A stretch of 64,000 bases of DNA, taken from NCBI GenBank assembly GCA_963786955.1, contig CAWBAT010000005.1:736001-800000 (forward strand), given 5' to 3'. Below are positions 35,264-62,447 of this stretch, one piece after another (positions within the stretch are counted from its first letter, which is position 1; every line of letters starts with the position of its first letter). The notes under the pieces are model-generated. The model ran no database searches. It was not told the origin of the DNA and worked only from the letters and a program-made list of their open reading frames with translations. This DNA is from an uncultured Acidimicrobiia bacterium (lineage in GTDB: Bacteria > Acidobacteriota > Terriglobia > Versatilivoradales > Versatilivoraceae). Both the position numbers and the translations under genes were made by a program.

Positions 35264-35400
35264 AAACGCCGCGGGACGGCGCCAAGAACACAATAGCAGC
35301 AGAACCTGAGGCCGCCGGAGTGCTTTCAACAATGTCTTTGGGTACTTCGTCGGCAGTCACGATTAGCTGTACCTTGGCGATCTTTGCGTTCCTGGCGTTT
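35264..35400. repeat. 9-bp CGCCAAG inverted-array element, copy A
   Basis: Degenerate left arm AAACGCC..GGCGCCAAG; right arm CTTGGCGAT CTTTGCGTT CCTGGCGTTT. Confidence 0.7.
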
Positions 35401-35432
35401 CCATCAGCCGATTAAGCGCTGTCTCAAGCGAG

Positions 35433-35651
35433 TCAGGAATGAATCGCGGCAGCAATGATGATACAAATGCCTAGCGACATCGCTCCAACTACAATGGCGA
35501 GAGCCGTATTATGCTCCTCAATAATTTCCTTCCACAGGTGATAGGGCGTTAGTTTGTCTATCAAGACAAATGAAACCCAGAAAATAAAGATCCCCAGAAC
35601 AGAAAAGACAACCGCATTCAATACGAAACCAAAATTGATCAGTCCGCTCAC
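35433..35651 (-). CDS. DUF350 (YjfL-like) small membrane protein
   Basis: IDKLTPYHLWKEIIEEHNTALAIVVGAMSLGICIIIAAAIH. Confidence 0.88.
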   Translation of the reverse strand: MSGLINFGFVLNAVVFSVLGIFIFWVSFVLIDKLTPYHLWKEIIEEHNTALAIVVGAMSLGICIIIAAAIHS

Positions 35652-35674
35652 GTTCGCCTCCCCTCCTTTGCCTT

Positions 35675-35845
35675 TCACTTGTGATAGAAACGCTGATAGA
35701 CACTTCGATAGGCGCCTGGATTGTCACGTATCGATTTGGGAATATTTTTCACTTCATCGTAACTCGTCAGACTCCACCCCCGATATTCAGCCCCCGTGTA
35801 AAGCCCCAGGACCAAAGTCCCGAAAAGCAAAAGAAAACGATACAT
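35675..35845 (-). CDS. Small membrane-anchored protein (56 aa, absent from the ORF track)
   Basis: Hand translation MYRFLLLFGTLVLGLYTGAEYRGWSLTSYDEVKNIPKSIRDNPGAYRSVYQRFYHK*; AGGAGG RBS; fills the operon gap. Confidence 0.75.
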   Translation of the reverse strand: MYRFLLLFGTLVLGLYTGAEYRGWSLTSYDEVKNIPKSIRDNPGAYRSVYQRFYHK

Positions 35846-35847
35846 GC

Positions 35848-37173
35848 CTATTCATCCTCCTTAGCGGTAACCATGGGGTGGTCACTTTCCGCCCATCTCC
35901 GGTATTCGAAGGAACGTCTTCTTGACCAAAGCATGAGAGGAATCAATAACAGGCCACCGAGAGCCATAAAAAAATACGTCCAGCGGGGGACGTCCCGGTA
36001 CACCCGAATGGAATAGTTCATCTCCCGAACTTGTGCATCCGGCTCGATGCGCAAGTAGTAATGTCCAGAAGGCACGGCAGGGATAATTGCCTCATCGCTT
36101 GGGCTGCCTTCTTTCCATGATTCGCCCCCATCGTAACCGTGGTAATAGCTGACCTCCCGGCCAAAGTCGTAGGCATTGCCAGTCTCTTCGTTGATCAGGG
36201 CCAGATTGAGATAGATCCAACTGTTATCCACGTTTGCGCGGCTTTCAATAATTACGTTGGAAGGGCGGCCTGTCAGTTCAAAGATGTCGGTGACTCGCGC
36301 CTTCTCCACATCCGCCTGGTGAAAAGCAAAAGCGTTCTGATAGACGAGCCTATTTTGAGAGAGAAGTAAGAAAAGTATTTGGAGAAAAAGGAGCAAGAAG
36401 AATAAAACGCTCCAAACCTTCCATATTTTTCCAGATTGCTCTTCGAAAGGCGAGGGTTGATTGGGAGCGACTCCGACCTTGGGCGGAATCGGCGTTTTCA
36501 GTTGAAAACTGCTCCACACAGTTTCCGGCTCAGTGTAGTCACCGATCGACCAGGTAACTTCCTTGTCGGTAACCTCTTTGCTTAGGATGTGAGGAGGAGC
36601 AACATAATCATGGACAGTACAGGTTTCTCCCACGGCAACCTTCCAATAAAACTCTCCGACCACGTAGCTCACTTGGGCCACGCAGGACTGGAAATGAAGG
36701 AAGGATTCTCCAAGATAATTCACCGGCCCCGTCGCCACTGTGAAAGTTTCTTTAGGAACATTGGTTGTGGTCCTTACATAGTTCCAATGTCCGTTGTATT
36801 CGGTCAGCCATCGAAACCCTTTGTAGGGGTTAAACAGGAGATACTCACTCCACTCATATTCGACGCCTTCCACTTCAATCTTGCGGCGAAGGTAACCGAT
36901 GGCCTCAAAGGGTTCTCCGCGAAGCTTTCCGCGAGTACCCAGAGGAATCATCGGCTCATATTTGATTCGAGCTTGGTAGGTCTCTATGATCCGCAGGTTT
37001 TCATCCGTCAGATCGATGACGGAGCCGCAAGTTTCACAGACGATGGACTCGGTCTGCTGCATGCCTCGGACAGTCAGAGAGTTACCGCAGCCCGGACAGG
37101 CAAAGGCTTTGACTGAGGGCGCGGATGGAGGGGAAAGCGGTGGTTGCAAAGTCGAATCCAATTTACCATCCAT
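35848..37173 (-). CDS. DUF4178 domain protein with Zn-ribbon and two TM helices
   Basis: CPGCG..CETCG; WSEYLLFNPYKGFRWL; YVVGEFYW; YYHGYDGGESWKEG. Confidence 0.85.
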   Translation of the reverse strand: MDGKLDSTLQPPLSPPSAPSVKAFACPGCGNSLTVRGMQQTESIVCETCGSVIDLTDENLRIIETYQARIKYEPMIPLGTRGKLRGEPFEAIGYLRRKIEVEGVEYEWSEYLLFNPYKGFRWLTEYNGHWNYVRTTTNVPKETFTVATGPVNYLGESFLHFQSCVAQVSYVVGEFYWKVAVGETCTVHDYVAPPHILSKEVTDKEVTWSIGDYTEPETVWSSFQLKTPIPPKVGVAPNQPSPFEEQSGKIWKVWSVLFFLLLFLQILFLLLSQNRLVYQNAFAFHQADVEKARVTDIFELTGRPSNVIIESRANVDNSWIYLNLALINEETGNAYDFGREVSYYHGYDGGESWKEGSPSDEAIIPAVPSGHYYLRIEPDAQVREMNYSIRVYRDVPRWTYFFMALGGLLLIPLMLWSRRRSFEYRRWAESDHPMVTAKEDE

Positions 37174-37792
37174 CGAATGCTTTTAACCCAGAGAGTTGTA
37201 ACTCGTCGAATTCAACATACTCGCCCAGAAAAACCAATGGGCTTTCTTCGCTATAGTCAATCGTTGCAAAAGTATTGTCTTCACCCACTAAGTCGACCAC
37301 GGGCGCTTCATAGCCCGGGCCAACTTGAAAGGGCAACTCCCCTTCTCCAGCGATACAGAGGGCCTTTTGGATATCCCGAATCTCGTACCGCTTTCCATTC
37401 AATTGAAGCTTTTTACCGGGAGCAACGTCTACAAAGGCCGGGACTGTCTCAGGGACCTGCACTAGAAACGAAACGGCATAAGTCCCTTGGGCTTCACCGA
37501 GCCATCCGTCTCGCATATCGTCAAACAAGAGATGCCATTCGTTCCAAAGCCCTTGGTCATAGCGCAATTGAATTCGTCCCACCACTCCGAAATGGACATT
37601 TCGGTAAATGCCCTCGGCCCGCAGTTGTACAGGGGTTCCGTCAACCTGCAGCTGAGCCATCTTGCCGATGTCCTCTAAGTTGAGGTCATGACGAACCAAG
37701 GTGGAGTGGCAGTACTCGCAAATGGCCAAAATCGAAGCTGCCGATTGGAAGTGAATGGCCGCGCCGCACGAGGGACAATTCGAAGTCATCAT
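37163..37792 (-). CDS. DUF4178 domain protein with Zn-ribbon
   Basis: CPSCGA..CEYC; GRIQLRY..GLWNEW; EGELPF; TIDYSE. Confidence 0.85.
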   Translation of the reverse strand: MMTSNCPSCGAAIHFQSAASILAICEYCHSTLVRHDLNLEDIGKMAQLQVDGTPVQLRAEGIYRNVHFGVVGRIQLRYDQGLWNEWHLLFDDMRDGWLGEAQGTYAVSFLVQVPETVPAFVDVAPGKKLQLNGKRYEIRDIQKALCIAGEGELPFQVGPGYEAPVVDLVGEDNTFATIDYSEESPLVFLGEYVEFDELQLSGLKAFDGW

Positions 37793-37801
37793 TGAGCAAA
37801 C

Positions 37802-38170
37802 TCAAAGGGAGGATGTCTTCCCCTCCCTGTCGTAACAGCGGAGGTATTGCCGGACTTCGATGTCAGAGGCGCCGAGACGTGAAGATAGCGACGCCTTCCA
37901 GTCTATGGCTGGCCGGGGCCGGCAACAAAAGACATTCAAACAAACGGAAGAAAATTCCGGAAAAGAGTGAATCGTCAGATGCGACTCCTGCAAGAGCCAA
38001 ATTCCAGTAACCCCTCCATGCCCTGCAAATTGATGCCAAACTGGCTTGCCAATCGGGTTCAATCCCATCTCGCCAACGATTTGCTGGAAAAGCCCGCGCA
38101 ACTCGGTCAAGTCCTGCAAAGCCTCAGACCGGCACCCAAAAGCTTCAACCAACCACTCAACGCCACCCAA
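37802..38170 (-). CDS. speD: S-adenosylmethionine decarboxylase proenzyme
   Basis: HQF..HGGVTG..LLQESHLTIHSFPE containing the E|SH pyruvoyl cleavage site; NVFCC. Confidence 0.88.
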   Translation of the reverse strand: MGGVEWLVEAFGCRSEALQDLTELRGLFQQIVGEMGLNPIGKPVWHQFAGHGGVTGIWLLQESHLTIHSFPEFSSVCLNVFCCRPRPAIDWKASLSSRLGASDIEVRQYLRCYDREGKTSSL

Positions 38171-38229
38171 GCGATACTCCTTCCGTACTTAATACGAACA
38201 CAATAAATCGTGATATGTATCCAACCCAG

Positions 38230-38305
38230 ACCCCCCTCAAGTCCCCCCTTTTTTAAGGGGGGACAAAGTAGAGACTGCTCCACCCTTGCACATGCAAGGG
38301 GGGAC
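38230..38305. repeat. C/G-tract double-hairpin REP-like element
   Basis: GTCCCCCCTT-TTTT-AAGGGGGGAC and TCCACCCTTGCA-CA-TGCAAGGGGGGA. Confidence 0.6.
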
Positions 38306-38403
38306 ACTGGTTGGTGAAGAACGAATTCCTCATTGGGGGATTGAGCATCTCCTCGAAGTCTTGAAACCCATAAAACTCGCGAGACGCCTGTACTCCCAGA
38401 ACT

Positions 38404-39405
38404 TCAGATGAGTTTCTTGAGTAACTCTGCCTTTTTTACTTCGAACTCTTCTTTCGTAAGAACCCCTTTGCTCATCAAATCATGTAATTTCTCAAGCAGT
38501 GCCGTGACTTCGGCAGTCGCATCAGTCGGGAGCTTCGGGGGCTGCATGGCGCTGGCCATCGAGGTCGCCATGGTCTGGCCAATAGTTAACCCCGCACCCA
38601 GCCCGGCTCCAATCCCTGCCACTCCGCCTTCGTTACCCGCCGCAATCGGAATGCTCTGAGCCGTTTGATACTGCGTGAACTTGGACATGTCTCCGATCAA
38701 TCCCATTCCGATGCGTTGATCCAGAACCTTTTGCAATTCGTCCGGAAGAGAAACATTTTGGACTTGGAGCGTATCGAGTGCCAAGCCGATCCGCTTGAAT
38801 TCCTGATCGAGTTTCTGCTTCATCTGGTTGCCCAGTTCATCCTGATTGGCTGCCATATCCAAAAAGGGGATAGACGATTGGCCAAACAAATCGGAAATGG
38901 AGGCGACAATTGTATTGCGCAATTGCCCGTCCAGGTCTGAGACCATATATTGTTCACGTGTACCACTCACTTGCATGTGAAAGGCACGAGGATCGAAAAT
39001 CTTGTAGCTATAGATTCCAAAGGCCCTTAGCCGGACAGCCCCGAATTCCTTGTCTCGAATAGTGATGGGATTTGCCGTTCCCCATTTTTGGTTCAGCTGT
39101 AATCGCGTGCTGAAAAAATACAGATCCGACTTGAAGGGAGATTCGAAAAGCTTATCCCAATTCATCAGGTTGGTTAGGAGAGGCAGAGTCTGGGTTGTCA
39201 ACGTATACCTTCCAGGGGGGAAGACGTCGGCAATTCTCCCTTCATTGACAAAGACAGACATCTGAGATTCGCGAACCGTCAGCGAGCCTCCATATTGGAT
39301 TTCAAAGTCCTGCATCGGATAGCGATAGGACAGAATTCCTTCACTGTTCTCCGTCCATTGAATGACATCAATAAACTGTTTCTTAAGAAAATCTTTCAGG
39401 GCCAT
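38404..39405 (-). CDS. SPFH/band-7 domain protein (YdjI-like) with C-terminal SHOCT
   Basis: QFIDVIQW, LTVRESQ..VFVNEG, KWGT.NPI.IRD.EFG.VRLRAFG; LEKLHDLMSKGVLTKEEFEVKKAELL. Confidence 0.9.
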   Translation of the reverse strand: MALKDFLKKQFIDVIQWTENSEGILSYRYPMQDFEIQYGGSLTVRESQMSVFVNEGRIADVFPPGRYTLTTQTLPLLTNLMNWDKLFESPFKSDLYFFSTRLQLNQKWGTANPITIRDKEFGAVRLRAFGIYSYKIFDPRAFHMQVSGTREQYMVSDLDGQLRNTIVASISDLFGQSSIPFLDMAANQDELGNQMKQKLDQEFKRIGLALDTLQVQNVSLPDELQKVLDQRIGMGLIGDMSKFTQYQTAQSIPIAAGNEGGVAGIGAGLGAGLTIGQTMATSMASAMQPPKLPTDATAEVTALLEKLHDLMSKGVLTKEEFEVKKAELLKKLI

Positions 39406-39637
39406 CGAACCCCTCCTTTGCTGAGGTCACCACAGGCTTCGGTGAATGAAACGTACTTTAAGTGATATTTGTTCCCATTTCCAAATTCAATCTATCAGAC
39501 TACACTGCGGGATGAACATGCCAATGTATTTATCTTGGAAAATGCCTTCCTTGAAGTCTTGTACTTTCAACAGGCTTGGCTTTATAGCCCTTCCGAGCTA
39601 AGATTCAATCCTGACTCTGAAGCACTGGAGAGGAATT

Positions 39638-40021
39638 ATGTCGGAATCAGTAACACGCGGGATTCGCGTTATCGCAGAGGCGACTTATCAGCCTGAACGT
39701 TCCTCCGCTAAGGACCAACACTATTTTTTTAGTTATCAAATCACCATTAGGAACGAAGGTGAAGAGACCGTCCAATTACTCTCGCGGCACTGGAAAATTC
39801 ATGACGCCGACGGCAACCAGGAAGAGGTCACTGGGCAAGGGGTCGTCGGGGAACAGCCCATCATTGTTCCGGGCGAACAATTTACTTATTCTAGTTTTTG
39901 CCCCTTGAAGACGGAAGTGGGCTCTATGCGAGGAACTTATCAGATGGCCACAGAGGAGGGGGAAAAATTTGATGTCGTCATTGCGCCCTTTACTCTCGCC
40001 ACCCCCTATTCCATTCATTAG
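39638..40021 (+). CDS. apaG: ApaG protein
   Basis: YQITIRN, QLLSRHWKI, GQGVVGEQP, GSMRGTY. Confidence 0.95.
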   Translation: MSESVTRGIRVIAEATYQPERSSAKDQHYFFSYQITIRNEGEETVQLLSRHWKIHDADGNQEEVTGQGVVGEQPIIVPGEQFTYSSFCPLKTEVGSMRGTYQMATEEGEKFDVVIAPFTLATPYSIH

Positions 40022-40044
40022 ATCAATTCAAACGGAGTGTTGAT

Positions 40045-40919
40045 ATGCCTAAATTGAAGAACCTTATCTGGAGTCTTGCCCTGATGATCTGTTTGTGCCT
40101 ATTGGGCTGCGGAGGTCAGCCAACCAAGGAAACACCATCGCCCGCTCCTGCTCCTCCCCGTCAGAAAAAGCCCCTACTCCAGGGACTTCAGAGGAGCCGA
40201 GAAACCTGCAGCGCAACCGAGCCTGCAGCACCGACCGAAACCCCCGCCAAAGAGCCATCACTGAGTCAGCTCAAACAAAGAAACCCGGAACCAAACCGGG
40301 AGCTGAAACTGGCGCTCTTAAGCCGTCCCGGCCAAGCCAAAGGGACCTGCCCCAGAACTGTTTGACCCTTCCTTGGCAAAGGCAGTAGCCCCGCACAATA
40401 TAAGGTAAGGTTTGAGACCACAAAAGGAGATTTCGTCATCCAAGTCACGCGAGCCTGGGCGCCGCTCGGAGCGGACCGTTTCTACAATCTGGTGAAGGCC
40501 GGGTACTTCACCGATGTGGCCTTTTTCCGGGTCATCGAGGGATTCATGGCACAATTCGGGATCCACGGCGATCCAAAGGTCAGTGAAAAGTGGGAACCAG
40601 CCCACATCCAGGACGATCCGGTAAAAGAATCCAATGTGCGCGGGATGATTTCCTTTGCCACAGCGGGTCCAGGAACGCGAACCACCCAGCTATTCATCAA
40701 TTTTGGTGACAACAGCAAGTTGGATACGATGGGATTTTCGCCGTTCGGGAAAGTCATTGAAGGGATGTCAGTGGTGGACGCGCTCTATAAAGATTACGGA
40801 GAAGGTTACCCGAATGGCCGAGGTCCTTCACAAGGGCGAATTCAATCTGAAGGCAACACTACTTGAAGAGCGAATTTCCGAAATTGGATTACATTAAGCA
40901 GGCAACTTTTGTGAAGTAA
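40045..40919 (+). CDS. Cyclophilin-type peptidyl-prolyl isomerase, lipoprotein, frameshifted
   Basis: Lipobox LLGC; FFRVIEGFMAQFG, ISFATAGPGTRTTQLFIN, FGKVIEGM. Confidence 0.88.
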
Positions 40920-40971
40920 GGTCGAACCCTGAAGAACTGAGTTTCTTCGCGGGTGGACCCCAAAAAGATGG

Positions 40972-41030
40972 AAACGCCAAGAACGCTAAGATCGCCAAGT
41001 TTCCGCCGCTTTTCTTGGGCCTTGGCGTTT
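40972..41030. repeat. 9-bp CGCCAAG inverted-array element, copy B (minimal)
   Basis: AAACGCCAAG AACGCTAAG ATCGCCAAG ... CTTGGGC CTTGGCGTTT. Confidence 0.8.
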
Positions 41031-41065
41031 CGGTTTATTTACAACTAGGGACACAGGGCTGCGCC

Positions 41066-41661
41066 TTAACCGGGTTTGGAAGTGGCTTGTTCGATGAGCC
41101 TCCGGGTCGCCTCGTCGAGATCCAATTGCAGAGCCATTCGCGTGCCCCTTGGAGCTCATTTTTTTCCAGGTTTTTTGAATGATCTCGACGAGTTTAGCTT
41201 CTTCTGTTTTTTCAGAGAACTCGGCAAATTGGCTTTCTAGAAAGACTAGACAGAGGGCGTCCTCCAACACTTGTGTCTCAAGGTCATGTCGGATGTCTTG
41301 TTTCAAGTTAAGTTCCCGGACTCGTTGAACGATTTCTTCAGAATAATGGAGGGCCCGAAGTGTTTCCTCCGCTCGGGAGGCATGATATTGGGACAGCTTT
41401 TTGCGCCAGTTCAAATATCCAACCCTTCCGGGGGGAAAGTCGCTTCGCGGAATTTTCCACCGCTCCAGATGCTGGGAGCGGGCGGCCAGCCGCAGGGCCT
41501 CGGAGGCGTTGGGTTGGAGTTGCAATACCCAACGCGTCAGTTCCCGGGCATACCACAATTCTCTGGGATGCTCCTGTCCCTGAATTCGCAGAACGTTCGG
41601 GTCTTGTCGCATTCAAGTAATCAAAAGCCTGAATGGCTTGTTGAAAGAGATCTTCCTGCAT
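41066..41661 (-). CDS. DUF4202 domain protein, frameshifted
   Basis: AARSQHLERW.IPR..FP.GRVGYL.WR; LEDALCLVFL; KTWKKMS. Confidence 0.85.
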
Positions 41662-41740
41662 CGCTTCTATTCCTTTTTAATGAGACCCCTACTATGCTCT
41701 GCACTAATTCTCACCCCAGCACAAATATCCGGAGAAAACC

Positions 41741-44700
41741 ATGCGCATTAAACAATGATGCCTTTCATGCTACTCCTTCTTTTTGGAGGAACCAACACAC
41801 TTGCCCAGTCTGAAGCCCGATTACTGCGCTTTCCTGCGATTTATGACAATCAAATTGTCTTTAGTTACGCGGGGGACCTTTACGCTGTTTCTGCCACAGG
41901 CGGGACAGCCCGCAAACTGACCAGTGACAACGGGTATGAAATGTTTGCGCGTTTTTCGCCTGATGGCAAGACCATTGCCTTTCACCGGCCAATACGATGG
42001 GAATACCGAAGTTTATCTGATTCCAGCCGAAGGCGGAGTTCCCAAAAGACTCACGTTCACTGCGACACTAGAGCGGGATGACGTGGCGGATCGCATGGGG
42101 CCCAACAATATCGTCATGGGATGGAAAAATGACACCAGATTGTTTTTCGTTCCAAGAAAACTCAATTTAATGAATTCAAAGGACAATTACTGCTGGCGTC
42201 GATTGAGGGAGGGATTCCCGGAAGAACTGCCTTTACCTCGAGGCGGGTTCTGCTCGTTCTCCCCTGACCAAAATAAACTCGCCTACAACCGGATTTTCCG
42301 GGAATTTCGAACCTGGAAACGCTATCGCGGCGGACAGGCAGACGATATTTGGATTTACGATTTTCAAACCAAAACAACCACGAACCTGACCAATAATCCG
42401 GCCCAGGACATTATCCCAATGTGGAGTGGAAATAAGATCTACTTCCTCTCGGACCGCGATGAAAACAAGCGAATGAATCTCTACGTTTATGATCTGGGAA
42501 CCAAGAAAACCAGCGCTCTGACCCATTTTGTCGAATTTGACATCAAATTCCCGTCGCTGGGCAATCGAGCCATAGTTTTTGAGAATGGCGGATACTGTGT
42601 ATCGGATGGATCTATCGAGTGAAAAGGCCGAAAAGGTGCCCATCTTCATTCATGAAGACCTTGTCTGGAAGCGAGGTGGTCTGATCGATGTGAGCAAAGG
42701 GATTAGCAATTATGAGATCGCTCCCGATGGCAGTCGTGCGTTATTGGGTTCCCGAGGTGAGATTTTTACTACTCCCGGCAAAGTACGGCAATACACGGAA
42801 TCTGACAAACTCTTCCGGAATTCACGAACGGAATTCTAAGTGGTCTCCCGATGGCAAGTGGATCGCATACATCTCGGACGCTACCGGAGAAGAAGAGATT
42901 TACATCATGCCGCAGGATGGAAGTGGACCTGCCAAGCAATTGACCCACAACGGAGACACATACAAGTACAAGCTTCTCTGGTCACCCGACAGCAAGAAGA
43001 TCCTCTGGTCCGACAAGAAACTCCGCCTCCAGTACGTTGATATTGAGACTGAAAAAGTCACTCTGGCGGCGCAAGCCAAGGCATGGGAATTCGAGGACTT
43101 CAACTGGTCTCCAGACAGCCTGTGGATCACTTATGCCCAAATCGAAGAGGATAGACTCCCCACGGTCTCTATTTATTCCTTGGAAAAACAGCAGCGGATC
43201 GAAGTCACCGATGGCTGGTTCGCTTCAGGAGAACCAGCTTTCAGCTCGGATGGGAAATTCCTTTTCTTCGTTTCAAACCGGGATTTCAACCCAACCTATG
43301 GCCAGACGGATCGGGACTTCATTTATAGCGACTTGCAGAGAATCTATTTCGTCACCCTCGACCGCTCTACGAAATCTCCGTTCGAACCAAAAAGTGATGA
43401 GGTGAAAATCACCGAGAATGAACCGAAAGAATCATGCCGGAAAGGACAAAAAAAAGGAAGAGGAACAGAAGAAATCAGTGATTGTCAAAGTCGATGAGTC
43501 GGGGCTGAAGAGTCGAATTATTGAATTACCAGTTACTGCCTCTTCCTATCGAAATTTGGCGTCCGTGGGTGAGCGACTTTATTATGTTCGCAGCGGTAGC
43601 AAAGACGAGAAGCCCAAACTCCTGATGTTTGAATTAGACAAGCAAAAAGAGACCGAACTCGGTGAGGTCAATGGCTTTGAAGTTTCGGCGAATGGAAAAA
43701 AGATGATCGTAGGGCAGCAGGGTTCTTATGCCATCCTCGATGTTCCTAACTCCCGCCTGGATCTCAAAGAGCGTTTGAATTTGTCTGACATGAAAATGAA
43801 CCTGGATCGGTCTGCCGAATGGAGGCAGATCTACAATGAATGCTGGCGCCAGATGCGGGATTTCTTTTATGCGCCGAACATGAACGGAGTGAACTGGGCA
43901 GGAGTCCGGAAGACATATGAGCCTCTTTTAGAGCATGTGGGACACCGTGCCGATTTAGATTACGTCATTGGAGAAATGATTGGCGAGTTGAATGCTGGAC
44001 ATACTTATGTGGGCGGGGGCGATATGCCCAAAGTGGAGCGAATCAAAATGGGTTTACTGGGAGCCCGCATCGAACGAGACCCCGCTTCAAAATACTACCG
44101 GATCAGAAAAATTTTACCTGGCCAAAACTGGGACAAAAAAGTTCGTTCCCCTCTTTCGGAGGTGGGCGTAGACGCCCACGAGGGGGATTATATTCTGGCA
44201 ATCGACGGCAAGCCGACCAATTCCATGGTTGACATCTATGAATCTCTGGTAAGCACAGTCGATAAACAGGTTCGTTTGAAATTGAATGCTCAGGCGAAAG
44301 AAGAAGGGAGCCGGGAAGTGGTCGTGATCCCCATCAGCGATGAGCGACCTCTTTACTATTACGAGTGGGTAGAGAAGAACGTCGAAAAAGTCAGCAAAGC
44401 CACGGATGGGAAAGTCGGATACATTCATATCCCAAACATGAGGGTGGAAGGTCTCAATGAGTTTGCCAAATATTACTACCCTCAACTTCGGTAAGGAGGG
44501 ATTGATCCTCGATGTCCGGGGGAATGGTGGGGGCAACATCTCTCCGATGTTGATTGAGAAATTGCGCCGCGAAATCGCTCTATTTGGAGTGGCTCGGAAC
44601 ACAGCCATCGTCTATAACCCCAGCGGGCTGGTCCTCGGTCCAAAAGTCTGTCTCCTCGATGAATTTTCGGCTTCAGACGGAGATCTATTTCCTTACCGTT

Positions 44701-45017
44701 TCAGGATTCACAAACTGGGAAAACTGATTGGGAAACGCTCATGGGGCGGCGTCGTCGGGATTCGTGGAACGCTTCCGCTTGTCGACGGAGGATATTTGAA
44801 CCGTCCGGAATTTTCGGTTTTTGATCTGTCCGGGAAAGAATGGGTGATTGAGGGTCATGGCGTTGATCCGGATATCGTTGTGGATAACGATCCTGCCAAA
44901 GAATACGTTGGGATTGACGAACAACTCGACAAAGCCATTGCCGTCATCCTGGAAGAGATGAAGAAACAGCCCGTGAAACTGCCCACCCCTCCGCCTTATC
45001 CGGATAAGAGCAAGTGA
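41741..45017 (+). CDS. Tricorn-like S41 protease, frameshifted
   Basis: LLRFPAI, WKRYRGG, PD40 propellers, GELNAGH, PDZ, DVRGNGGG, SASDGD, RSWGGVVGI. Confidence 0.92.
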
Positions 45018-45035
45018 GCAGCCTGCCTGTCGTCT

Positions 45036-45199: not shown

Positions 45200-46536
45200 C
45201 TAATGTGAATCTTTTGGTTCAGGAAGACTCAACGCAACGGCGAGAGCAGGCAGAAAGAGGAAAGACGCATAGAACAGGGCAACGCGAAAACTGCCAACCT
45301 TGGAAAAAAGTCCGAAAAATACAGTGCCCAAAGCAGCCGCGATTCGTCCAATGTTATAACAGAACCCCGCTCCGGTCGTGCGCAGGAGAGTCGGGAAAAG
45401 AGGCGGGAGATACATCGTAAATAAGCCAAAGACACCTGAACAGAACCCAATCAAAGGCAGCCAGAGAAGGAGAGCAACGGTGGTCGCGCGGGACGCTATA
45501 GGCACCAAACATGGCCAGAAAAAAACACAGAACACAATAACGCAATACTCCTCCGGTATCCGAATAGGCTGGCAATCCATCCCGCAAAAAAATTTCCTCC
45601 CATCGAAGCCACGACGACGATGAAGAAAAACTTGCTCACCAGTTGCTCTCGATCATAGACCGTCCAGGTTGCCAATTCCGGAAGATTTCGCACATGCTGC
45701 TGGTTCCAGAACATGGAATGCCCACCAGGCGGTCAAGGAAAGAGAACAGACCAGGATCGTCTTGACAGTAATGGGGAGCACCTCCCCTCGAAAAAGCTCC
45801 ATAATCGAAGGTTCATGATGCTGCGCTTTGAGCTTTCGCGGCGTGCCACTCTGCCGGCTCAGGAACGGCTCGTCGAATCCAGAACACCAAAATGGCGGGA
45901 AGAATGCCGACGAAGAAAAACCCAGCGCGGATTCTGGTCCGCCATGACGTAAACGGTTACACACGCCAGCAACACGCCGATATTCACGCCGGTTTGAAGG
46001 ACGGCCGCAATCCAAGGACGCCACCGGCGCGGCCAGGTTTCCGACAAGAGAGCCGACCCAACGGCCCACTCGCCTCCAATTCCTAACGCCGCGAGGAAAC
46101 GAAAAATTAATAAATGCCACCAAGTCTGAGCAAAAGAAGAGAGGCCGGTAAAAATAGCATAGGTCAGAATCGTCAAGGAAAGCGCCCGGCTTCGTCCGAG
46201 AAGATCTCCGATTCGGCCAAAGAAACCGCCTCCCAAAGCCCATCCGATGAGGAAGGCTGCTTGAATCCAGGAACTGTACAGTTTGACCTTGGGGTCCGCG
46301 AAGCTATGCACCTGCAGCAACTGCATCACAAACGGGGCCGCCACGAGCGTGTAGAGATGCATGTCCAGTCCATCAAATAACCAGCCGAGCCAGGCTGCTG
46401 TGCCGGACTTCCATTGTTGGGAAGAGATTTCACTGAGACGAGTCGCTTCGGGGATCGTGGCCGGACGAGTCTCCTTTTCTACGAGCCTTCGATCTGGAGT
46501 CTCTCGCAAGAAATTTTCTGCCTCACGGTTTGCCAA
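45200..46536 (-). CDS. MFS transporter (sialate/aromatic acid-like), frameshifted
   Basis: WLGWLFDGLD, GRIGDLLGR, GIGGEW, LFPTLLRTTGAGFCYNIGR. Confidence 0.85.
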
Positions 46537-46725: not shown

Positions 46726-46860
46726 AACCGCTAAGATCGCCAAGAAAAGCAACGAAAACTCATCTCCAGTGAAATTTCATTCCTGCATATCCAAGAGTTC
46801 CCCAATGAAGCTTTAACCCCAATGTTTTTACTCTTGGCGCACTTGGCGTTCTTGGCGTTT
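46726..46860. repeat. 9-bp CGCCAAG inverted-array element, copy C (135 bp)
   Basis: AACCGCTAAG ATCGCCAAG ... CTTGGCGCA CTTGGCGTT CTTGGCGTTT. Confidence 0.85.
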
Positions 46861-46870
46861 CTGAATCTCT

Positions 46871-46979
46871 CTAGTACAAACTTGCAGAATTCTGTGTTGC
46901 AGTTGGCCCCGCTATTTAAGCCCGGGGTCAACGACCCCAGCTACAACAATTGCCGCGAATTTGTGCAATTTAGTACTAG
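46871..46979. repeat. 109-bp CTAG-ended REP/MITE-like element (copy 2)
   Basis: Colinear with 6738-6846 and the same length. Confidence 0.8.
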
Positions 46980-47001
46980 AACTCCCCTGCCAGGGCTTGA
47001 T

Positions 47002-51955: not shown

Positions 51956-52027
51956 TTCACCGCAACGCGCTTGATTTTTTTGAGTTGGTCCCCCCCTACT
52001 CCCCTTCCCTTAGCCCCCTGTTGAAAG

Positions 52028-52163
52028 AAACGCCAGGAACGCAAAGACCGCCAAGAATCAATGCATTAGAGCCAACACCTTGCTGAGATTGTTTTTGGAT
52101 GAATAGGATTGAATTGCGTTGGAGATGAGTTTCAGTTGCTTTCCTTGGCGTCCTTGGCGGTTT
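52028..52163. repeat. 9-bp CGCCAAG inverted-array element, copy D (inverted homologue of C)
   Basis: AAACGCCAGG AACGCAAAG ACCGCCAAG ... CTTGGCGTC CTTGGCGGTTT. Confidence 0.85.
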
Positions 52164-52227
52164 ATATTTTTGTTGGGCCGAACAAATGGAAGAAATGCAA
52201 AGGCCGTCATGTCCTCCGAGAAAACAC

Positions 52228-52268
52228 TTGACTTTTGATTCATATTTCGACTATAGTCGAAATATGAA
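52228..52268 (+). promoter_or_regulatory. arsR promoter with ArsR operator
   Basis: TTGACT-N18-TATAGT, overlapped by the perfect 30-bp palindrome TTCATATTTCGACTATAGTCGAAATATGAA (52239-52268). Confidence 0.8.
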
Positions 52269-52605: not shown

Positions 52606-52646
52606 TTTTTTTCATTATTATTTCTACTATTATAGAAATAAAGGAG

Positions 52647-53627: not shown

Positions 53628-53722
53628 TCTTCGTTTCCCAGTGGTCATTTTTCATTTCTCAATTCGCCGTCATAAGTCAACGAAAAATGAAAATAGTAGA
53701 GAACCGATAGCGAATAACAAAT
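53580..53722. repeat. Inverted heptamer tandem-repeat element
   Basis: TTATTGG TTATCGG TTATCGT CTATTTG TTATTGG ... AACCGAT AGCGAAT AACAAAT, with a nested TCATTTT/AAAATGA pair. Confidence 0.65.
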
Positions 53723-53756
53723 TCCACTTTTTTTATTCTCCGGTGGCTTTCCCCAA

Positions 53757-55353
53757 TCAATTGACTCGTTTCTCGCGTCCTTCCCAGAAAGGGCTGACGT
53801 AATTCCCGCTTCAGATATTTTTCCGGTCCCTCCTTTGGGTAACGAATCTCTGAAATGCACGGCTTTGGGGCACTTGAAATGAGCGAGTCCGGGTACGCGT
53901 GAAATCAATGATCTCTTGCTCGTTCAACTGGGTCCCAATTTTGGCACGACAATGGCAATTGGCAGCTCTCCCCAGCGGTCGTCCGGGATCCCAATGATCG
54001 CGCACTCCAGAACGGCTGGATGACTATAGAGGACGTTTTCAACTTCCGCCGAGGAAATATTTTCCCCACCGGAGATGATAATGTCCTTACTGCGATCTAC
54101 AATTCGCAGAGATCCTTCATTATCAACCGTTGCCAGGTCTCCGGTGTAAAACCAGTCGTCGCGAATGGCGTCCCGAGTGGCTTGCGGGTCTTTGAAATAT
54201 TCATTCATCACGACGTTGCTGCGGACAATCACTTCTCCAATCTCTTCATCATTAGGGGCTACTTCCTGACCTTCGGAATTGACCACGCGAATCTCGGCAA
54301 CGATCATTTCCCTCCCAGCCTTGTTTGGACATTCAATCTTCGAAGCGGATCCCACGTTTTCATCGGTGTCAGTTGGCAGTGCCAGGGAAATCACCGGAGA
54401 CGTTTCGGTAAGGCCATAGCCGGCGATGGCCAGACATTTGAACTTTTCTTCAATGCCTTGGATCAAGGTCAATGAAGCGGGAGCGCCTCCAATGATGGCC
54501 ATTTGAAGGCTACTCAGATCATAGTGGACCCGTTCCATGGCATGAATCAAAGCGGTAAAAACGGTGGGGACGGCGAAGATTCGACTGACCTTTTCATCTT
54601 GAACGAGTCGGAATATCTCTTGAGGGAGTGATTTTCCGAGTCATGACATGCTTGCCGCCTACTGCGGTCAGGAAGTGAGGTGAGCCCCATCCGTTGACGT
54701 GAAATAAAGGGACAACATGCAGAAGGACATCACGGTCGGAGAAATGCAGACAGGTCAAGAATCCCAAGGGCATGGAGATAGAGCGCCCGATGACTCAGCA
54801 CCACTCCTTTGGGGCGGCCCGTTGTCCCTGAAGTATAGAAAAGTTCAGCAGGAGCATTTTCGTCAGTTGACCGGTTCAAAAATGTATTTTCGCCCGCTGC
54901 GGCAAGCAAAGCCTCATACTCTTGACAATTTCCGGGAAGCGTTGAATTGGTATCAATCTCGACGAAATACTTCACTGTATTCAGGCGCGGTTGCAACTTT
55001 TGGATCAAGAGACGAAAGTCGGAGTGGTAAAAAACAATTTGCGACTCGGAATGGTTGAGGATGAATCCAATTTCTTCGCCTGCTAGGCGGACATTAATCG
55101 GATTGAGGATGGCTCCGAGCTTGAATGATCCCATAGTAAGCTTCCAACAGGTGATGGGTATTATTTGAGACAAATGAAACGACATCTGCTTTCCTGAATA
55201 CCCATGAGAATGCAGTCCCATGGCAAGCCTGTTGACACGATCCCCAAATTCCGAATAGGTAAATCGCTTCGAGCCATCAACAACTCCTATCTTTTGAGGG
55301 TAGAGATGGATTGCACGGCGGCGGAATTCCAATGGGGTCAGAGGAACAACCAT
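53757..55353 (-). CDS. Long-chain fatty-acid/acyl-CoA ligase, frameshifted
   Basis: YTSGTTGRPKGV, PLFHVNGWG, GYGLTE, TGDLA, DRSKDIIISGGENISS, LPKGGTGK. Confidence 0.9.
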
Positions 55354-55766
55354 TGATTTCGTTTACTCCTCAACGTATTTTTCGTTCATAGATTGAGCAA
55401 TTTAAAGGGAGAGCGAGACTTCCGGCCAATCTATCAAACGGAAGGCTGATTTCTAGAGAAGGATGTCCCATAATTCCTGATTTCCATCCCATGGGCATTC
55501 TTGCGGGCAGGATTTTGACCGGAATCGATTGCAAATTCCAGCCCGGATTGTTAGATTTTAAGCGTAGTTGAGGAGTCCATCCAAAATCAACAATATATTG
55601 AAGATTGCAAGACATCTTACCGAACCCCTCATTCGGCTGAGCATGACGGACTCCTCTCCCGCACGAATAGAGGGGTGCCGAAGGCGGGGGGGGGAGAAGC
55701 ATAAAACAGAGTCACCTTTGAAGCAGTCAACTCTGATTTGTAAACATCGAAAATGAGGAGATCTTC

Positions 55767-56658
55767 ATGAGACCAATCTCTAGGCGACAGTTTGCTACCC
55801 AACTCACTATGGCCACAGGGAGCATGGCATTGCCCCTTCATCTGGCATGGGCACAGAAGGCACCGAGTTCGATGGTCGATGGTGTCCAACTGGGTGTCCA
55901 AAGTTATAGCTTTCGCGATCGGGACTTTGAACAAGCCATCAAAGCGATTGTAGAAGTGGGCATTAACAGTTGTGAACTCTGGAGCGGGCATTTGGAACCG
56001 CAGGGACTCGGGCCTGACAAGCTCCGCCGCTGGCGATTGGAAACTCCGTTGTCCTACTTTGAGAATGCCGGGCAGAAACTTCGAAACGCAGGGATTCAGT
56101 TGAACGCTTATAACTACAGCTTTAGAAAAGAAATGTCGGAGCGAAGAACTCCAACGTGGATTTCAGATGACCCAGCGCGCTAGGAGCCCCATCCATTACT
56201 GCCTCATCCAACCCGAGTATGGCCAAGCGGATAGACGAGTATGCCTCAGAAATTCAAAATGCGAGTCGGCATGCACAACCACGCTCAGGGAGGAAAAGGA
56301 GATGAATACGATGGGCCAAAGGACTTTGCGGCTGCCATGACTGGAAGCTCACTCTACATTTGCATCAATCTCGATATCGGGCATTTTGTGGCCGCCGGAT
56401 TTGATCCCGTGGATTTTATTGATCAGCACCACGCCCGAATCGTGACGCTGCACATCAAGGATCGCAAGAAGAATCTTGGCGTGAGACTCCCCGACTTTAA
56501 AATTCGGTACCGGCGACACGCCCATCCGGGAAGTCCTTTTACTCCTCAAGAAGAAGCAATACAAGATTCCTGCCAACATCGAGCACGAGATCGATGGTCA
56601 ACCTTCTCTCGAAGGAGTGAGAGAATCGCTCGATTACTGCAAGAAAGCACTCGCTTAA
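55767..56658 (+). CDS. Tat-exported sugar-phosphate isomerase/epimerase (TIM barrel), frameshifted
   Basis: SRRQF, GVQSYSFRD, VGMHNH, NLDIGHF, LHIKD, PANIE. Confidence 0.85.
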
Positions 56659-56727
56659 GAGTGGCGAACAGGCCATTGAATATGTCGGCTATTGCACTCC
56701 CCTTTAGCCTTCACTCGTAAAGATTTG

Positions 56728-56901
56728 AACCGCCAAGAAAAGCTAAAAAGGCTGAAGCTGTCACTTACGACTTCGGCTCCAGCTCACTTCTTTCAGGCCA
56801 ATTTGAGATCCGACTTATCCAAACAAAAGGGTTTCAGTAAGGTCCTTGCCTTCAGTCTTTCTTTCTTGGCACACTTTGCGTCCTTGGCGTTCTTAGCGAT
56901 T
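56728..56901. repeat. 9-bp CGCCAAG inverted-array element, copy E
   Basis: AACCGCCAAG... and right arm CTTGGCACA CTTTGCGTC CTTGGCGTT CTTAGCGATT. Confidence 0.8.
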
Positions 56902-56931
56902 CCTTCATTTGTTTGGCCCAATAAAGACTAG

Positions 56932-57218
56932 AACCGCCAAGAGCGCCAAGAAAAGGGTCGAAAACCTGGACCCCCTGGCCCATTAGTCCTATTGGTCGAA
57001 TGGCCCTTCCCGATGATTTCTGAGAACTCGCTGGATGCCGTCGCGCACGGGGTGCGCGCCTTACTACAGCGACCACCGCTTCCCCCTCCTTAGCTAAGGA
57101 GGGGAACCAAAATTGAGTTCGTTCACAACTTCCTCCACTGGAGGGGAATTGAGGTAGGTCCGCTTCTTCATTCGCCCCAAGAATTCCGGCTTGGGGGAAC
57201 TTTGCGTCCTTGGCGTTT
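56932..57218. mobile_element. 9-bp CGCCAAG inverted-array element, copy F, with GxxExxY 3' remnant
   Basis: Arms AACCGCCAAG AGCGCCAAG / CTTTGCGTC CTTGGCGTTT; minus strand 57045-56989 reads RDGIQRVLRNHREGPFDQ*. Confidence 0.8.
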
Positions 57219-57379
57219 CGATCTTTTGAGATACTTGGGAACAACAATGATTCAATCTTGAGTGGATGTTCATAAGCAAACGTCACATGCTAGGCATTTC
57301 ACGCATTTCGCCGTTTCATGAACAGTGAGAACGGCTTCCCCGCAAGATTTGACAATAGGTTGGGAGAGCATCTTTCCGT

Positions 57380-57988
57380 TTACTTCGACACAAAGGAATT
57401 CCCTTTAATATAAAACCTCCATGATTTTGAAAGCCACGGCTCTGGTGTCTTGCCGAGTCCGATCCGAGGAGAAGCGATGATCTCTCTGTCATCGGGTTTT
57501 ACTCCGGGTTCGATCCTGAGCGAAGATGCTTTCTCACAAAAATCTAAACCATTTTCAGCTTTTTGGATGGCCATCGCCTGAGTGAGACGACCGGGGCCCT
57601 TGCAGAGCAGCGAAATCTCGTTCATTCCACGCAAATGGCGCATGACCTCGATTCCTTCGATGGGTTCAACGGCTCGAATGAGGACCGCTGCCGGAAACCC
57701 TTCCTTCTCTGCCACGACGTTTAGCATCCAATGCATCCCATAAGTAAAGTAAACGTAAGCAAAGCCGGGAGGCCCATACATGATTTCCGTTCTCTTTGTC
57801 CGGCCAGCTTTAGCATGACAGGCGAGGTCCTCTTCCCCTCGATACGCCTCTGCTTCAACAATTCTGCCCGAGAGCCGAGTCCCATTCGATTGCCGGACCA
57901 GCAGACACCCAAGCAAATCGCGAGCCACAACTTCTGTGCGGCGCAGGAAGAAGGAGCGTGGTATTGAAGTTTGTGAATTCCGTCTCAT
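57380..57988 (-). CDS. mpg: DNA-3-methyladenine glycosylase (MPG/AAG)
   Basis: VARDLLG, IVEAEAY, YVYFTYGMHW, AVLIRA, GPGRL, PRIG. Confidence 0.95.
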   Translation of the reverse strand: MRRNSQTSIPRSFFLRRTEVVARDLLGCLLVRQSNGTRLSGRIVEAEAYRGEEDLACHAKAGRTKRTEIMYGPPGFAYVYFTYGMHWMLNVVAEKEGFPAAVLIRAVEPIEGIEVMRHLRGMNEISLLCKGPGRLTQAMAIQKAENGLDFCEKASSLRIEPGVKPDDREIIASPRIGLGKTPEPWLSKSWRFYIKGNSFVSK

Positions 57989-58028
57989 CGTTCAGCCGTT
58001 TGGGAAGACCGACCTTCTTTGAGAATAC

Positions 58029-59066
58029 TTACTCTACCCAGTCCGCTATGAAAACGTTTGTTTCTCCCCGTACTTTTCCATTTCGGTTGGAAGCAAACAC
58101 GAGTTTCTTGCCGTCGGGAGAGAACATGGGGAAGCCGTCAAAAGTTTCATTGAAAGTAATCTGCTCGAGTCCCGAGCCATCCAGGCTAATCAGGAACAAA
58201 TCAAAGTTCCTGCCCTTAGGGTCTTGGACATTTGACGAGAAGATGATCTTCCTTCCGCTGGGATGAAAAAAAGGACAAAAAGTTGCTGCATGAAACGAGG
58301 TGATTTGAGTGGAGTGAGAGCCGTCCGCATCCATGACAAATAGCTCCAATTCCCGAGGCTCGATCAGATTTTGGGCTAGCAACTCTTTGTAATGAGCCAG
58401 AGCTTTTTCGTCGGCTGGATGATGAGCCCGATAGACGATCTTTTGGCTATCCGGAGAGAAGAAAGCACCCCCGTCGTACCCGGGTGTCCGTGTCAGGCGG
58501 CGAACATCCGTACCATCCGTCTTCATAGAATAGAGTTCCAGATCTCCATCCCGAACGGAGGTAAAGACAATTCTTTTCCCATCCGGGGAAATCGTTGCCT
58601 CGGCATCATAGCCGGGGGTTGTCGTGAGTCGCTTTAATTTTCCGCTGAGATCGGAAAGAAAAATGTCGTAATCCTTCTCAAGGGACCAGACATAACCGCG
58701 GGAATAATCCGGCTTGGGTGGGCAAGCCTCTCCTCCCAAGTGGGTTGAGGAATAAATAAAATGCTGCCCGTCTGGAAGGAAGTAAGAACAAGTCGTTCGC
58801 CCTTTCCCTGTGCTGACCCGGTGGACGTCACTGCCATCACCATTCATGATGTAGATCTGATCACAGGGCCACTCGCCGCGGGTGGATTGAAAGATTAATT
58901 TCTTTCCATCAAACGAGAAATAAGCCTCCGCGTTTTCGCCACCAAATGTCAATTGACGGATGTTCTTAAGGTGTTTCTCAGGGCTGGATAATTCTTGAGC
59001 AGCAGGCTTCATCGAAAAGAAAGCGACCGGGAATAGAAGAGCAAGTATCAGTTGGCGAATAGTCAT
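58029..59066 (-). CDS. TolB-like PD40 beta-propeller protein, secreted
   Basis: QLTFGGENAEAYFS, PGYDAEATISPDG, GYDGGAFFSPD, FDGFPMFSPDG. Confidence 0.9.
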   Translation of the reverse strand: MTIRQLILALLFPVAFFSMKPAAQELSSPEKHLKNIRQLTFGGENAEAYFSFDGKKLIFQSTRGEWPCDQIYIMNGDGSDVHRVSTGKGRTTCSYFLPDGQHFIYSSTHLGGEACPPKPDYSRGYVWSLEKDYDIFLSDLSGKLKRLTTTPGYDAEATISPDGKRIVFTSVRDGDLELYSMKTDGTDVRRLTRTPGYDGGAFFSPDSQKIVYRAHHPADEKALAHYKELLAQNLIEPRELELFVMDADGSHSTQITSFHAATFCPFFHPSGRKIIFSSNVQDPKGRNFDLFLISLDGSGLEQITFNETFDGFPMFSPDGKKLVFASNRNGKVRGETNVFIADWVE

Positions 59067-59300
59067 GGCAGGGAAGTTTTTAACGGGGGAAAATGCGGAC
59101 GAGACGCCTGCGCCCCCGGTTTGATTCATCGAATTGAAAATGGCTCCATAAACTCCGTGCGACAGAGTTATTATACATCCAGCAACCCTTTATACTGACT
59201 ACTGCGAACGTGCAAAGGTTTGCGGAAATTGCCGTAGCCGAGCACGTTGACCAATGCGCGCTAACTTTATAAGGCTTTCCTCGCCTGCCGCAGGAAGAAC

Positions 59301-59802
59301 GAAACGCCAAGAGCGCCAAGTACACCAAGAAAAGGGGATACACCTCGGTCAGCGGCCTGATCTTAACCTACCCGTAGTTCTTCAGGATGCTTTCTGGCTA
59401 CCCGCTGGATGCCGTCGCGCAACAAAATCGCGTTCCAATTGATGATCAACCCCAAAGACAAGCCGCTCAATTTCAAGTATGTCAGCAACTGAGCGAGGTG
59501 GATGGGGAGAACTTTTTCGACCGTCTGGTTTTCCACCAACACCAATTGGTCGATTCGCATGTCGATGCGGCAACCGACCTCAATAAGCACCCCTGCAAAC
59601 TCTAGCGGAAAAGCGACTTGGCATTCGACCTGGTGGCGACGTCTTTGGAGCTCTTGTGCCAGACAAGCCTGATAGGCCGATTCCAGCAGCCCGGGCCCCA
59701 AGGCGCGAGGCACCCTGAGTACAGCGTAACAATATCCTGAGCTACTTCGTCGGCGGACATGAAGGCTCCAACTCTTGGCGAACTTTGCGTTCTTGGCGTT
59801 TC
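59301..59802. mobile_element. GxxExxY cassette bounded by inverted 9-bp repeat arrays (copy G)
   Basis: GAAACGCCAAG AGCGCCAAG TACACCAAG on the left, CTTGGCGAA CTTTGCGTT CTTGGCGTTTC on the right, with one gene between. Confidence 0.75.
59363..59760 (-). pseudogene. GxxExxY protein (PD-(D/E)XK-like), probably decayed
   Basis: LGPGLLESAY, RID, VENQTV, AQLLTYLKLS, GLIINW. GGAG-ATG at 59760 (MSADEVAQDIV) is one base out of frame, and ExK appears as ENQ. Confidence 0.85.

Positions 59803-62357: not shown

Positions 62358-62447
<90 letters not shown>

Follow-up and report, generated by a model that had tools for sequence, protein, structure and literature searches.

Seven short intergenic elements, each bracketed by inverted arrays of a 9-bp tandem repeat, lie within a 64,000-nucleotide stretch (the window) that covers C5:736001-800000 in the 5.65 Mb genome, assembled in 9 contigs from a sediment metagenome, of an uncultured bacterium; the longest of them holds a gene of the GxxExxY family (PF13366). 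They belong to a class of elements with a simple layout, namely a gene some 125 codons long with an array of two to four short tandem repeats (7-10 bp) on either side, the two arrays being inverted relative to each other. Our favoured explanation, on which we are about evenly divided when it is taken whole and with its mechanism, is that the seven elements are copies of one family (type-a, with the unit CGCCAAG) of widespread small selfish cassettes which resemble the intervening sequences (IVSs) of 23S rRNA and are located outside rRNA.

The arrays are apparent on direct reading of the sequence. All seven intervals contain inverted period-9 arrays of CGC[CAT]AAG, with arms made up of one to four nnCGC[CAT]AAG units and with outer ends reading GAAACGCC or GAACCGC. 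The two-unit pattern CGCCAAGNNCGCNAAG has nine matches in the window and none in 100 shuffles, which bears out the preliminary description of seven elements with inverted 9-bp arrays, and the terminus GAAACGCCAAG is found 11 times with at most one mismatch (shuffle mean 1.5), ten of the 11 being at element ends. A strict whole-genome scan for arrays of at least two units gave 52, compared with five in a reversed-sequence control, and 11 of the 52 fall inside the 25-kb stretch studied here, where an even spread would give about 0.2. Hence the elements are non-random and locally clustered. The 52 arrays resolve to 38 CGCCAAG array loci, comprising 14 inverted pairs and 24 solo arrays; for many of the latter a degenerate partner can be recognised, and no fewer than two, situated in coding-like sequence, are probably due to chance. 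All seven elements sit between protein-coding genes. The NAK and FAK peptides seen in translations correspond to the arrays read in frame; open reading frames (ORFs) such as the NAK-repeat peptides are annotation artefacts. An Rfam search with ten loci at E values up to 1 left arrays and cassettes unmatched and returned only a tRNA and chance microRNA matches. The earlier statement that neither a target-site duplication nor a transposase is to be seen in the window also held: no duplication or direct repeat was found at the ends of the seven elements or of 26 cross-phylum loci (below), no transposase is present among the 24 larger ORFs at 33.4-61.3 kb of the window, and none of the 23 Y1_Tnp (PF01797) matches of the genome falls in the window or inside a cassette.

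The near-full-length type-a cassette occupies 59253..59876 on the minus strand, from outer AGCGCT box to outer box, with its 3' array at 59301-59329 and its 5' array at 59774-59802. In an alignment of nine type-a copies from this genome (the window copy and eight others) the repeated unit of the best copies extends past the arrays, by a leader of some 80 bp on one side and a trailer of some 50 bp on the other, as far as a near-palindromic box built around AGCGCT; this box is followed immediately by a GC-rich hairpin of the repetitive extragenic palindromic (REP) type. The arrays by which the elements had been delimited are thus real, but the best copies reach some 50-80 bp further on each side. 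For the window cassette, copies of the REP hairpin stand just outside it at about 59240-59252 and 59877-59889. Such hairpins are found outside the AGCGCT box on the 5' side in 9/9 aligned copies and on the 3' side in 7/9 (the other two have diverged), and most of them carry an outward-pointing GTAG.

The gene of this cassette (59363..59760, minus strand, ATG at 59760-59758) is clearly of the GxxExxY family, as had been proposed: the window ORF at 59363-59806 on the minus strand matches PF13366 with an E value of 1.3e-28 and 100 bits against a cut-off of 22. It is, however, frameshifted after about 11 codons, and the catalytic lysine of its E-x-K motif is replaced by glutamine (E-N-Q), in contrast to the E-N-K of intact relatives in genomes G002 and G011. 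Together the frameshift and the E-N-Q sequence identify it as a pseudogene. Seven type-a copies were translated and all are broken. The window copy and C4:154818 have the frameshift after about 11 codons in common, C6:452486 has a different frameshift, and the remaining translated copies contain stops or internal deletions. Identical deletion breakpoints occur in two pairs of copies (C7:47318 with C4:533661, and C6:874077 with C6:1065593), implying that copies went on multiplying after loss of the gene. Nested deletions and common breakpoints in the nine-copy alignment show that gene-less type-a forms are internal deletions of the gene-bearing form. This supports the earlier suggestion of a gene-carrying element paired with non-autonomous derivatives as far as the gene-less forms are concerned; every copy of the family in this genome is broken. 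The genome has 38 CGCCAAG array loci and no intact type-a gene, type-a is probably extinct in it as an autonomous element, and the copies in the window are all dead. G002 (two copies) and G011 carry intact type-a genes, together with the outer box and hairpin described above. At C3:238600-255300 of the genome under study (G000) nine arrays of a related unit subfamily (outer TCTCGCCAAG) are gathered within 17 kb around an intact GxxExxY gene (C3:250961-251311), as a second local cluster.

The six shorter elements are more decayed, and two of them retain gene remnants that can be read from their sequences. Decayed cassette 1 (35264..35400, minus strand, its 5' array on the right and its 3' array on the left) has an N-terminal GxxExxY remnant inside, an AGCGCT box at about 35215-35228 and a calculated RNA fold of -46.3 kcal/mol (z -1.7). 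Decayed cassette 6 (56932..57218, minus strand) has a C-terminal remnant and forms a tandem pair, 30 bp apart, with decayed cassette 5 (56728..56901, minus strand), which has a four-unit array at its right end. Element 2 (40972..41030, plus strand) is a minimal hairpin form of 59 bp from which the gene is gone, consisting of three units, a 14-nt loop and two to three inverted units (-19.1 kcal/mol, z -2.0). Decayed cassette 3 (46726..46860, minus strand; -47.4 kcal/mol, z -4.5) adjoins a REPIN-type doublet (a hairpin-forming pair of REPs) at about 46870-46990, and decayed cassette 4 is at 52028..52163 on the plus strand (RNA fold z -1.0). The four short elements that have no remnant share only the arrays and end motifs with the full cassette, and from their sequences they would fit later stages of cassette decay.

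Comparison with a genome of the same genus, G002, in which the flanking genes are 84-91% identical, is in keeping with the mobility proposed in the preliminary description, as the element is missing at five of the seven orthologous sites (46726, 52028, 56728, 56932 and 59301). The 46726 site measures 26 bp in G002 and 359 bp in the window, and the G002 spacers orthologous to 40972 and 52028 are unrelated sequence. The 35264 element is present at the orthologous G002 site with a smaller deletion and must therefore predate the split. In G002 the 59.3-kb site is occupied by another gene and one REPIN, a hairpin of which is found on both sides of the window cassette; as a target-site duplication this repeated hairpin is ambiguous. 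Array abundance was also compared with the presence of the type-a gene in 31 genomes of the taxonomic family, which are kin and not independent samples, and was found to track the gene, as had been anticipated. Ten of the 31 have at least 13 arrays and eight of these ten have type-a matches at 67% identity or more; in genus g4, by contrast, all 14 genomes are without a type-a match and contain 0-2 arrays, the control level. Two genomes, G001 (13 arrays) and G006, have arrays and no type-a match.

Several observations concern the arrangement of cassettes in these relatives. Tandem cassettes are seen in the 56728/56932 pair of the window, at locus L013 and as a triple 477-bp unit in G003. The last of these (L134, G003:C59:287250-289050) consists of three head-to-tail GxxExxY cassettes with CACGAAG-type arrays, two of which scored identically. 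At two loci of G006 (L133, G006:C13:169350-170400, and L138, G006:C22:113950-114850) inverted CGCCAAG arrays enclose about 690 bp that are conserved between both and contain no evident GxxExxY or four-helix-bundle ORF; this interior may be a different or a non-coding cargo. In G001, a congener, CGCCAAG hairpins are interleaved with CATTG-type heptamer arrays in the same spacers (L135, G001:C17:2900-3500, and L136, G001:C37:15500-16000), so that different unit families seem to accumulate at common sites.

The array frame is not confined to type-a. The genome of the window has 20 profile matches to PF13366, and three of the scanned GxxExxY paralogs also match TIGR04256 (E 1e-34 to 3e-41). It has in addition ten matches to PF05635, the four-helix-bundle family annotated as "23S rRNA IVS protein", and its four-helix-bundle cassettes belong to PF05635 and TIGR02436. 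Nearly all PF13366 and PF05635 genes have a tandem array upstream and an inverted array downstream, and in this genome the upstream array often stops at most about 40 bases from the start codon; in the class as a whole it usually stops within a few bases of it. The sequence of the unit varies between paralogs. Examples from GxxExxY genes are CACGGAG, CACAAAG, CACGGGG, AACGGAG, CACAGAT and CGCAAAA, while four-helix-bundle genes have heptamers such as AAGGTCN, GAGTTCN, GATGCGN and CATTGTT. To score the frame we aligned the upstream flank locally with the reverse complement of the downstream flank and set a threshold of at least 14. In this genome the threshold was reached by 6/13 GxxExxY genes (8/13 at 13.5 or above), by 8/8 four-helix-bundle genes and by 1/1000 random intervals. 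An unbiased scan for inverted repeats with periodic arms recovered the same families together with many gene-less hairpins of the same unit types. In the four-helix-bundle unit families the likeness of gene-less hairpins to gene-bearing relatives is confined to the arrays, and an origin by deletion is accordingly not established for them. Larger inverted tandem pairs with gaps of 900-1400 bp were considered as a possible third cargo family and merely flank ordinary host genes, so no third family is indicated here.

The same frame accompanies these genes well beyond this genome, as the preliminary description had suggested for GxxExxY genes across taxa. In a separate, evenly drawn sample of the phylum, given the same flank test and with the loci of G089 left out, 20/26 GxxExxY loci pass (displaced control 0/22), as do 22/27 four-helix-bundle loci (control 0/25). 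For the cross-phylum scan we used one genome per species and a three-paralog alignment as query, and kept 80 loci from more than 15 phyla, including Planctomycetota, Verrucomicrobiota, Acidobacteriota, Chloroflexota, Bacteroidota, Desulfobacterota, Gammaproteobacteria, Nitrospinota and Lentisphaerota. Five with truncated ORFs or undetermined bases (N) in the flanks were excluded, and 45 of the 75 usable loci score at least 14 (displaced windows 1/59, shuffles 0/75). Their typical form has an outer TCTC[AG]C, 8-bp units and the ATG, with the mirror image after the stop codon. The proteins have 65-87% identity to the query across phyla (66-89% to the first of 81 aligned). Named cultured carriers, drawn from the plasmid collection, are Sphingomonas parapaucimobilis, a Bernardetia sp. 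and Bacteroides finegoldii; arrays are present in all three, and all three copies lie between co-oriented housekeeping genes, that of Sphingomonas between fabD and fabG. In this last locus (L199, NZ_CP155749.1:482494-483635) the spacers of the fabD/fabG cassette are 33 nt and 2 nt, and the 3' arm falls within what is annotated as C-terminal coding sequence, some 20 nt ahead of the fabG start. Overall the upstream neighbour is co-oriented with the gene in 96/111 loci against 74% for anchor ORFs of this genome, a modest excess over a rough baseline.

Sequence comparison shows that the cassettes have spread widely by horizontal transfer. Among possible vehicles, 50,697 phage records contained no relative, viral contigs none with the two peptide patterns used, and 7/72,556 plasmid records held one, mostly on very large replicons.

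The GxxExxY protein itself appears to be a minimal nuclease. An alignment of 81 GxxExxY proteins shows no variation at G, Y, D, E, K, Q and N, among which D and E-x-K constitute the nuclease residues. The AlphaFold model is confident, with a predicted local distance difference test score (pLDDT) of 91.6, and its fold neighbours are restriction-endonuclease-like, the best being 3ijm (Z 8.5 over 100 aligned residues, root-mean-square deviation 3.3), followed by Cas4 nucleases (Z 6.5-7.6) and archaeal Hjc (Z 5-6). By sequence, the PDB offers a single marginal match (2f8l, E 0.011). The predicted structure confirms a minimal PD-(D/E)XK nuclease fold and indicates no particular substrate. A 2012 survey of PD-(D/E)XK proteins gives PDDEXK_3 as of unknown function, with multiple transfers (PMC3424549).

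In order to see how the two arms of a cassette relate to each other, we compared them at 22 loci where both outer ends provided an anchor. Arm identity within a locus is 0.77, against 0.59 when partners are shuffled among loci (maximum 0.72 in 1000 shuffles). Independent drift would make these values equal, so something maintains the likeness of the arms, be it base pairing, a binding protein common to both or copying. A link between array and protein, proposed earlier, stands to the extent that units differ between paralogs and arms co-vary within a locus. The mismatches between arms favour G-U pairs on the sense strand (38 G/A against 16 A/G; overall 50 sense against 33 antisense), a lean which in part reflects the GGAG adjoining the start codon. 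A CRCNRAG core, defined on loci other than the phylum sample, occurs at least twice in 17/20 GxxExxY arms of that sample and in 0/22 four-helix-bundle arms. This conservation exceeds the needs of a stem and is the best argument for recognition of the arrays by the GxxExxY protein.

The closest described system is the IVS of 23S rRNA, and to this extent the preliminary description, which knew of no account of such elements, needs correction. The IVS of Coxiella burnetii is described as a selfish 428-nt element of 23S rRNA, with an ORF for the four-helix-bundle protein S23p in the loop of a stem processed by RNase III. A heptamer stands three times in tandem after the Shine-Dalgarno sequence and ahead of the start codon of S23p, and RNase III cleaves at the first of these repeats; the ORF is under reductive evolution while the stem persists (PMC4990558). 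The sporadic distribution of IVSs is ascribed there to horizontal transfer, with their means of movement given as unknown; older ideas quoted in the same text are that IVSs are remnants of transposition or mobile elements whose ORF serves mobility. It is this sameness of layout that leads us to read the cassettes here as IVS-type elements outside rRNA. As in the 23S IVSs described for Salmonella, Leptospira and Coxiella, a small ORF is placed in the loop of a long inverted-repeat stem and tandem short repeats in the 5' arm adjoin its start codon, and the four-helix-bundle cassettes of this genome belong to the IVS protein family itself (PF05635, TIGR02436). The cassettes differ in lying in ordinary intergenic spacers, in the cargo of the window family (a PD-(D/E)XK nuclease gene, PF13366, in place of the S23p four-helix bundle), in its units of 8-10 bp with a CRCNRAG core, and in their many copies per genome, gene-less derivatives and tandem cassettes. 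What appears to be new is the generalisation of IVS-type selfish cassettes to a second cargo family and to non-rRNA sites.

By analogy with the 23S rRNA elements, the two arms would pair in the transcript to form a long imperfect stem around the ORF, and RNase III would cut this array stem. A promoter-less cassette in a transcribed spacer could in this way be expressed from the host transcript and released from it without harm. That the cassettes are promoter-less is suggested by the absence of a sigma-70-like site in the full-length window copy together with the co-oriented upstream neighbour in 96/111 loci. Less confidently, spread within and between genomes may depend on the cassette's own nuclease, acting at the arrays or at a repeated palindromic target; the nuclease might cut a repeated target such as the REP hairpin, and repair might then copy the cassette in.

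A number of observations weigh against the IVS-type reading. Transversions account for 56 of the 139 mismatches between arms, the CGCCAAG unit lacks complementarity between arms at its two spacer bases, and the window relics fold only modestly above shuffles (z -1.0 to -4.5). The common CRCNRAG core appears to fit recognition by a protein better than a stem alone. In several loci, such as L069, L071 and L076 of Chloroflexota, the arrays form local hairpins beside the gene and not around it. None of the cassettes lies in rRNA, and the 23S rRNA of this genome measures 2955 nt against a model of 2925 positions and so has no IVS insert. Contigs of related strains from the Logan collection (sharing at most 0.27 of the words), placed against 45-61 kb of the window, cover cassettes 5 and 6 in four sediment runs and show no processing at the arms; none provides a clean joint across any element, those listed linking repeat copies with sides of 20-60 nt. 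Finally, the intergenic DNA of same-genus genomes, the nearest one included, is too diverged to define insertion ends at base level, and no target-site duplication was found.

The principal competing explanation gives the protein a direct role, in that GxxExxY would bind the tandem units at both ends as DNA, cut there and move its own cassette, and gene-less derivatives in trans, in the manner of a REP-associated tyrosine transposase (RAYT); in a variant of this, it is a homing endonuclease for a repeated palindromic target at which repair copies the cassette in. The invariant D and E-x-K residues, the restriction-endonuclease-like predicted fold and the preference of CRCNRAG for GxxExxY arms (17/20 against 0/22) all point this way, as do the multiplication of deleted copies and the way array abundance follows the type-a gene (8/10 array-rich genomes, with g4 lacking both), and a REP hairpin on both sides of the window copy where G002 has a single REPIN would fit copying by repair. 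Yet the four-helix-bundle family, which lacks a nuclease fold, has the same frame, so that the frame alone does not imply a nuclease-driven transposon. Neither the missing target-site duplication nor the 38 CGCCAAG array loci here without an intact type-a gene, nor the 13 arrays of G001 without any type-a match, is readily accommodated, and the association of gene and arrays could be mere linkage of a gene with its frame. On balance we consider direct mobilisation by the GxxExxY protein rather unlikely.

Two further explanations dispense with the cassette gene. The genome contains an abundant REP/REPIN family, with GTAG followed by a GC-rich hairpin and often in doublets (for example window 46870-46990 and G000:C6:573700-576900); its 12-mer REP motif has 154 one-mismatch matches, and some of the 23 Y1_Tnp matches lie among REP clusters. 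Together these have the look of a classic RAYT/REPIN system that is distinct from the arrays. It could nevertheless be what moves the type-a copies here, the cassette between inverted REP hairpins being an oversized REPIN and the 9-bp arrays uninvolved, which would account for the hairpins outside the AGCGCT box (9/9 and 7/9, mostly with GTAG outward) and for copies that multiplied although every type-a gene is broken. Against it, REPs are lacking at the ends of cassettes 2-6 of the window, of many further CGCCAAG loci, of other unit families and of the cassettes of other phyla, and the outer box and GC hairpin accompany type-a in other genera. Known REPINs are, moreover, about 100 bp long and not 700-800 bp. 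We therefore judge movement by the resident REP/RAYT system improbable. Least likely of all, and in our view barely tenable, is that the arrays are ordinary host repeats (transcript stabilisers, terminators or protein-binding iterons) beside ordinary regulated genes, with nothing mobile. The elements do lie in spacers among housekeeping genes, and heptamer arrays of Beggiatoaceae that end next to start codons have been considered possible translational regulators (PMC4679880). But five of the seven sites are empty in the congener, deletion breakpoints are shared between copies, pseudogenes and relics are present, proteins 65-89% identical across phyla come with the same arrays, and the search for terminator-like structures gave a single weak match, at shuffle level.

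Likenesses to other repeat systems are partial. In REP/REPIN-RAYT systems, too, a family of short intergenic repeats varies in abundance with a single small gene linked to it, inverted pairs form hairpins, and non-autonomous copies far outnumber the gene; here, however, the cargo is a PD-(D/E)XK protein (PF13366) and not a Y1 HUH transposase, the arm is a tandem array of a non-palindromic 9-mer instead of a single GTAG palindrome, and the gene sits inside the repeat pair. Miniature inverted-repeat transposable elements and the Correia-type elements of Neisseria resemble the cassettes as short spacer elements with terminal inverted repeats, which arise from a gene-bearing parent by internal deletion and are transcribed together with adjacent genes; RNase III acts on Correia stems. 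They differ in that the parent here encodes the GxxExxY protein only, with no DDE parent or target-site duplication found, and in that the ends here are built of tandem short repeats. Tandem spacer units of about 7 bp are also known from the short tandemly repeated repetitive (STRR) sequences of heterocystous cyanobacteria and from the TAACTGA arrays of Beggiatoaceae, which lie in spacers and often end 1 nt before a start codon (PMC4679880). Those are described as direct arrays upstream of many kinds of gene, with no inverted partner or dedicated cargo gene. Integron attC sites were considered and set aside: the cassettes are dispersed, the hairpin usually encloses the ORF, and inspection by eye, in place of a formal test, revealed no GTT/AAC core sites. 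Searches of the openly accessible literature gave no description of array-framed GxxExxY or four-helix-bundle genes outside rRNA.

A broader proposal, which we advance as speculative and rather doubt in its full extent, is that GxxExxY and four-helix-bundle IVS proteins are the hallmarks of a single superclass of autonomous mobile cassettes, bracketed by hairpins and pan-bacterial in extent. The GxxExxY enzyme would recognise CRCNRAG arrays or the structure that they form and drive excision, insertion or homing without a DDE, HUH or recombinase enzyme; 23S IVSs would be copies that landed in rRNA, and many intergenic heptamer or nonamer hairpins would be gene-less relics. Were the nuclease indeed to move the cassette, this would represent a new, PD-(D/E)XK-based form of mobility and a new kind of transposition enzyme. 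Through the array frame that they share with the rRNA IVSs, two very common "hypothetical" families without an assigned role gain a common context as cargo of selfish hairpin-bracketed cassettes, and some of the short tandem-repeat hairpins littering intergenic DNA gain a possible origin. The old question of how IVSs arise and move becomes testable on hundreds of non-rRNA copies, including those of cultured Bacteroides and Sphingomonas. Annotators are also warned that ORFs of the NAK-repeat type are artefactual.

Some neighbouring features of the window may be recorded. A tRNA gene (Rfam RF00005, 57 bits) lies at about 62358-62444, just downstream of the studied stretch. Housekeeping genes at 42712-45017, 53924-55353 and 45859-46536 are seemingly split or truncated and may be pseudogenes or assembly frameshifts. 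A tricorn-type protease is spread over three ORFs (PD40, Tricorn C1/PDZ and S41), an AMP-binding enzyme is split into two, and a major facilitator superfamily (MFS) transporter is present as a surviving fragment only.

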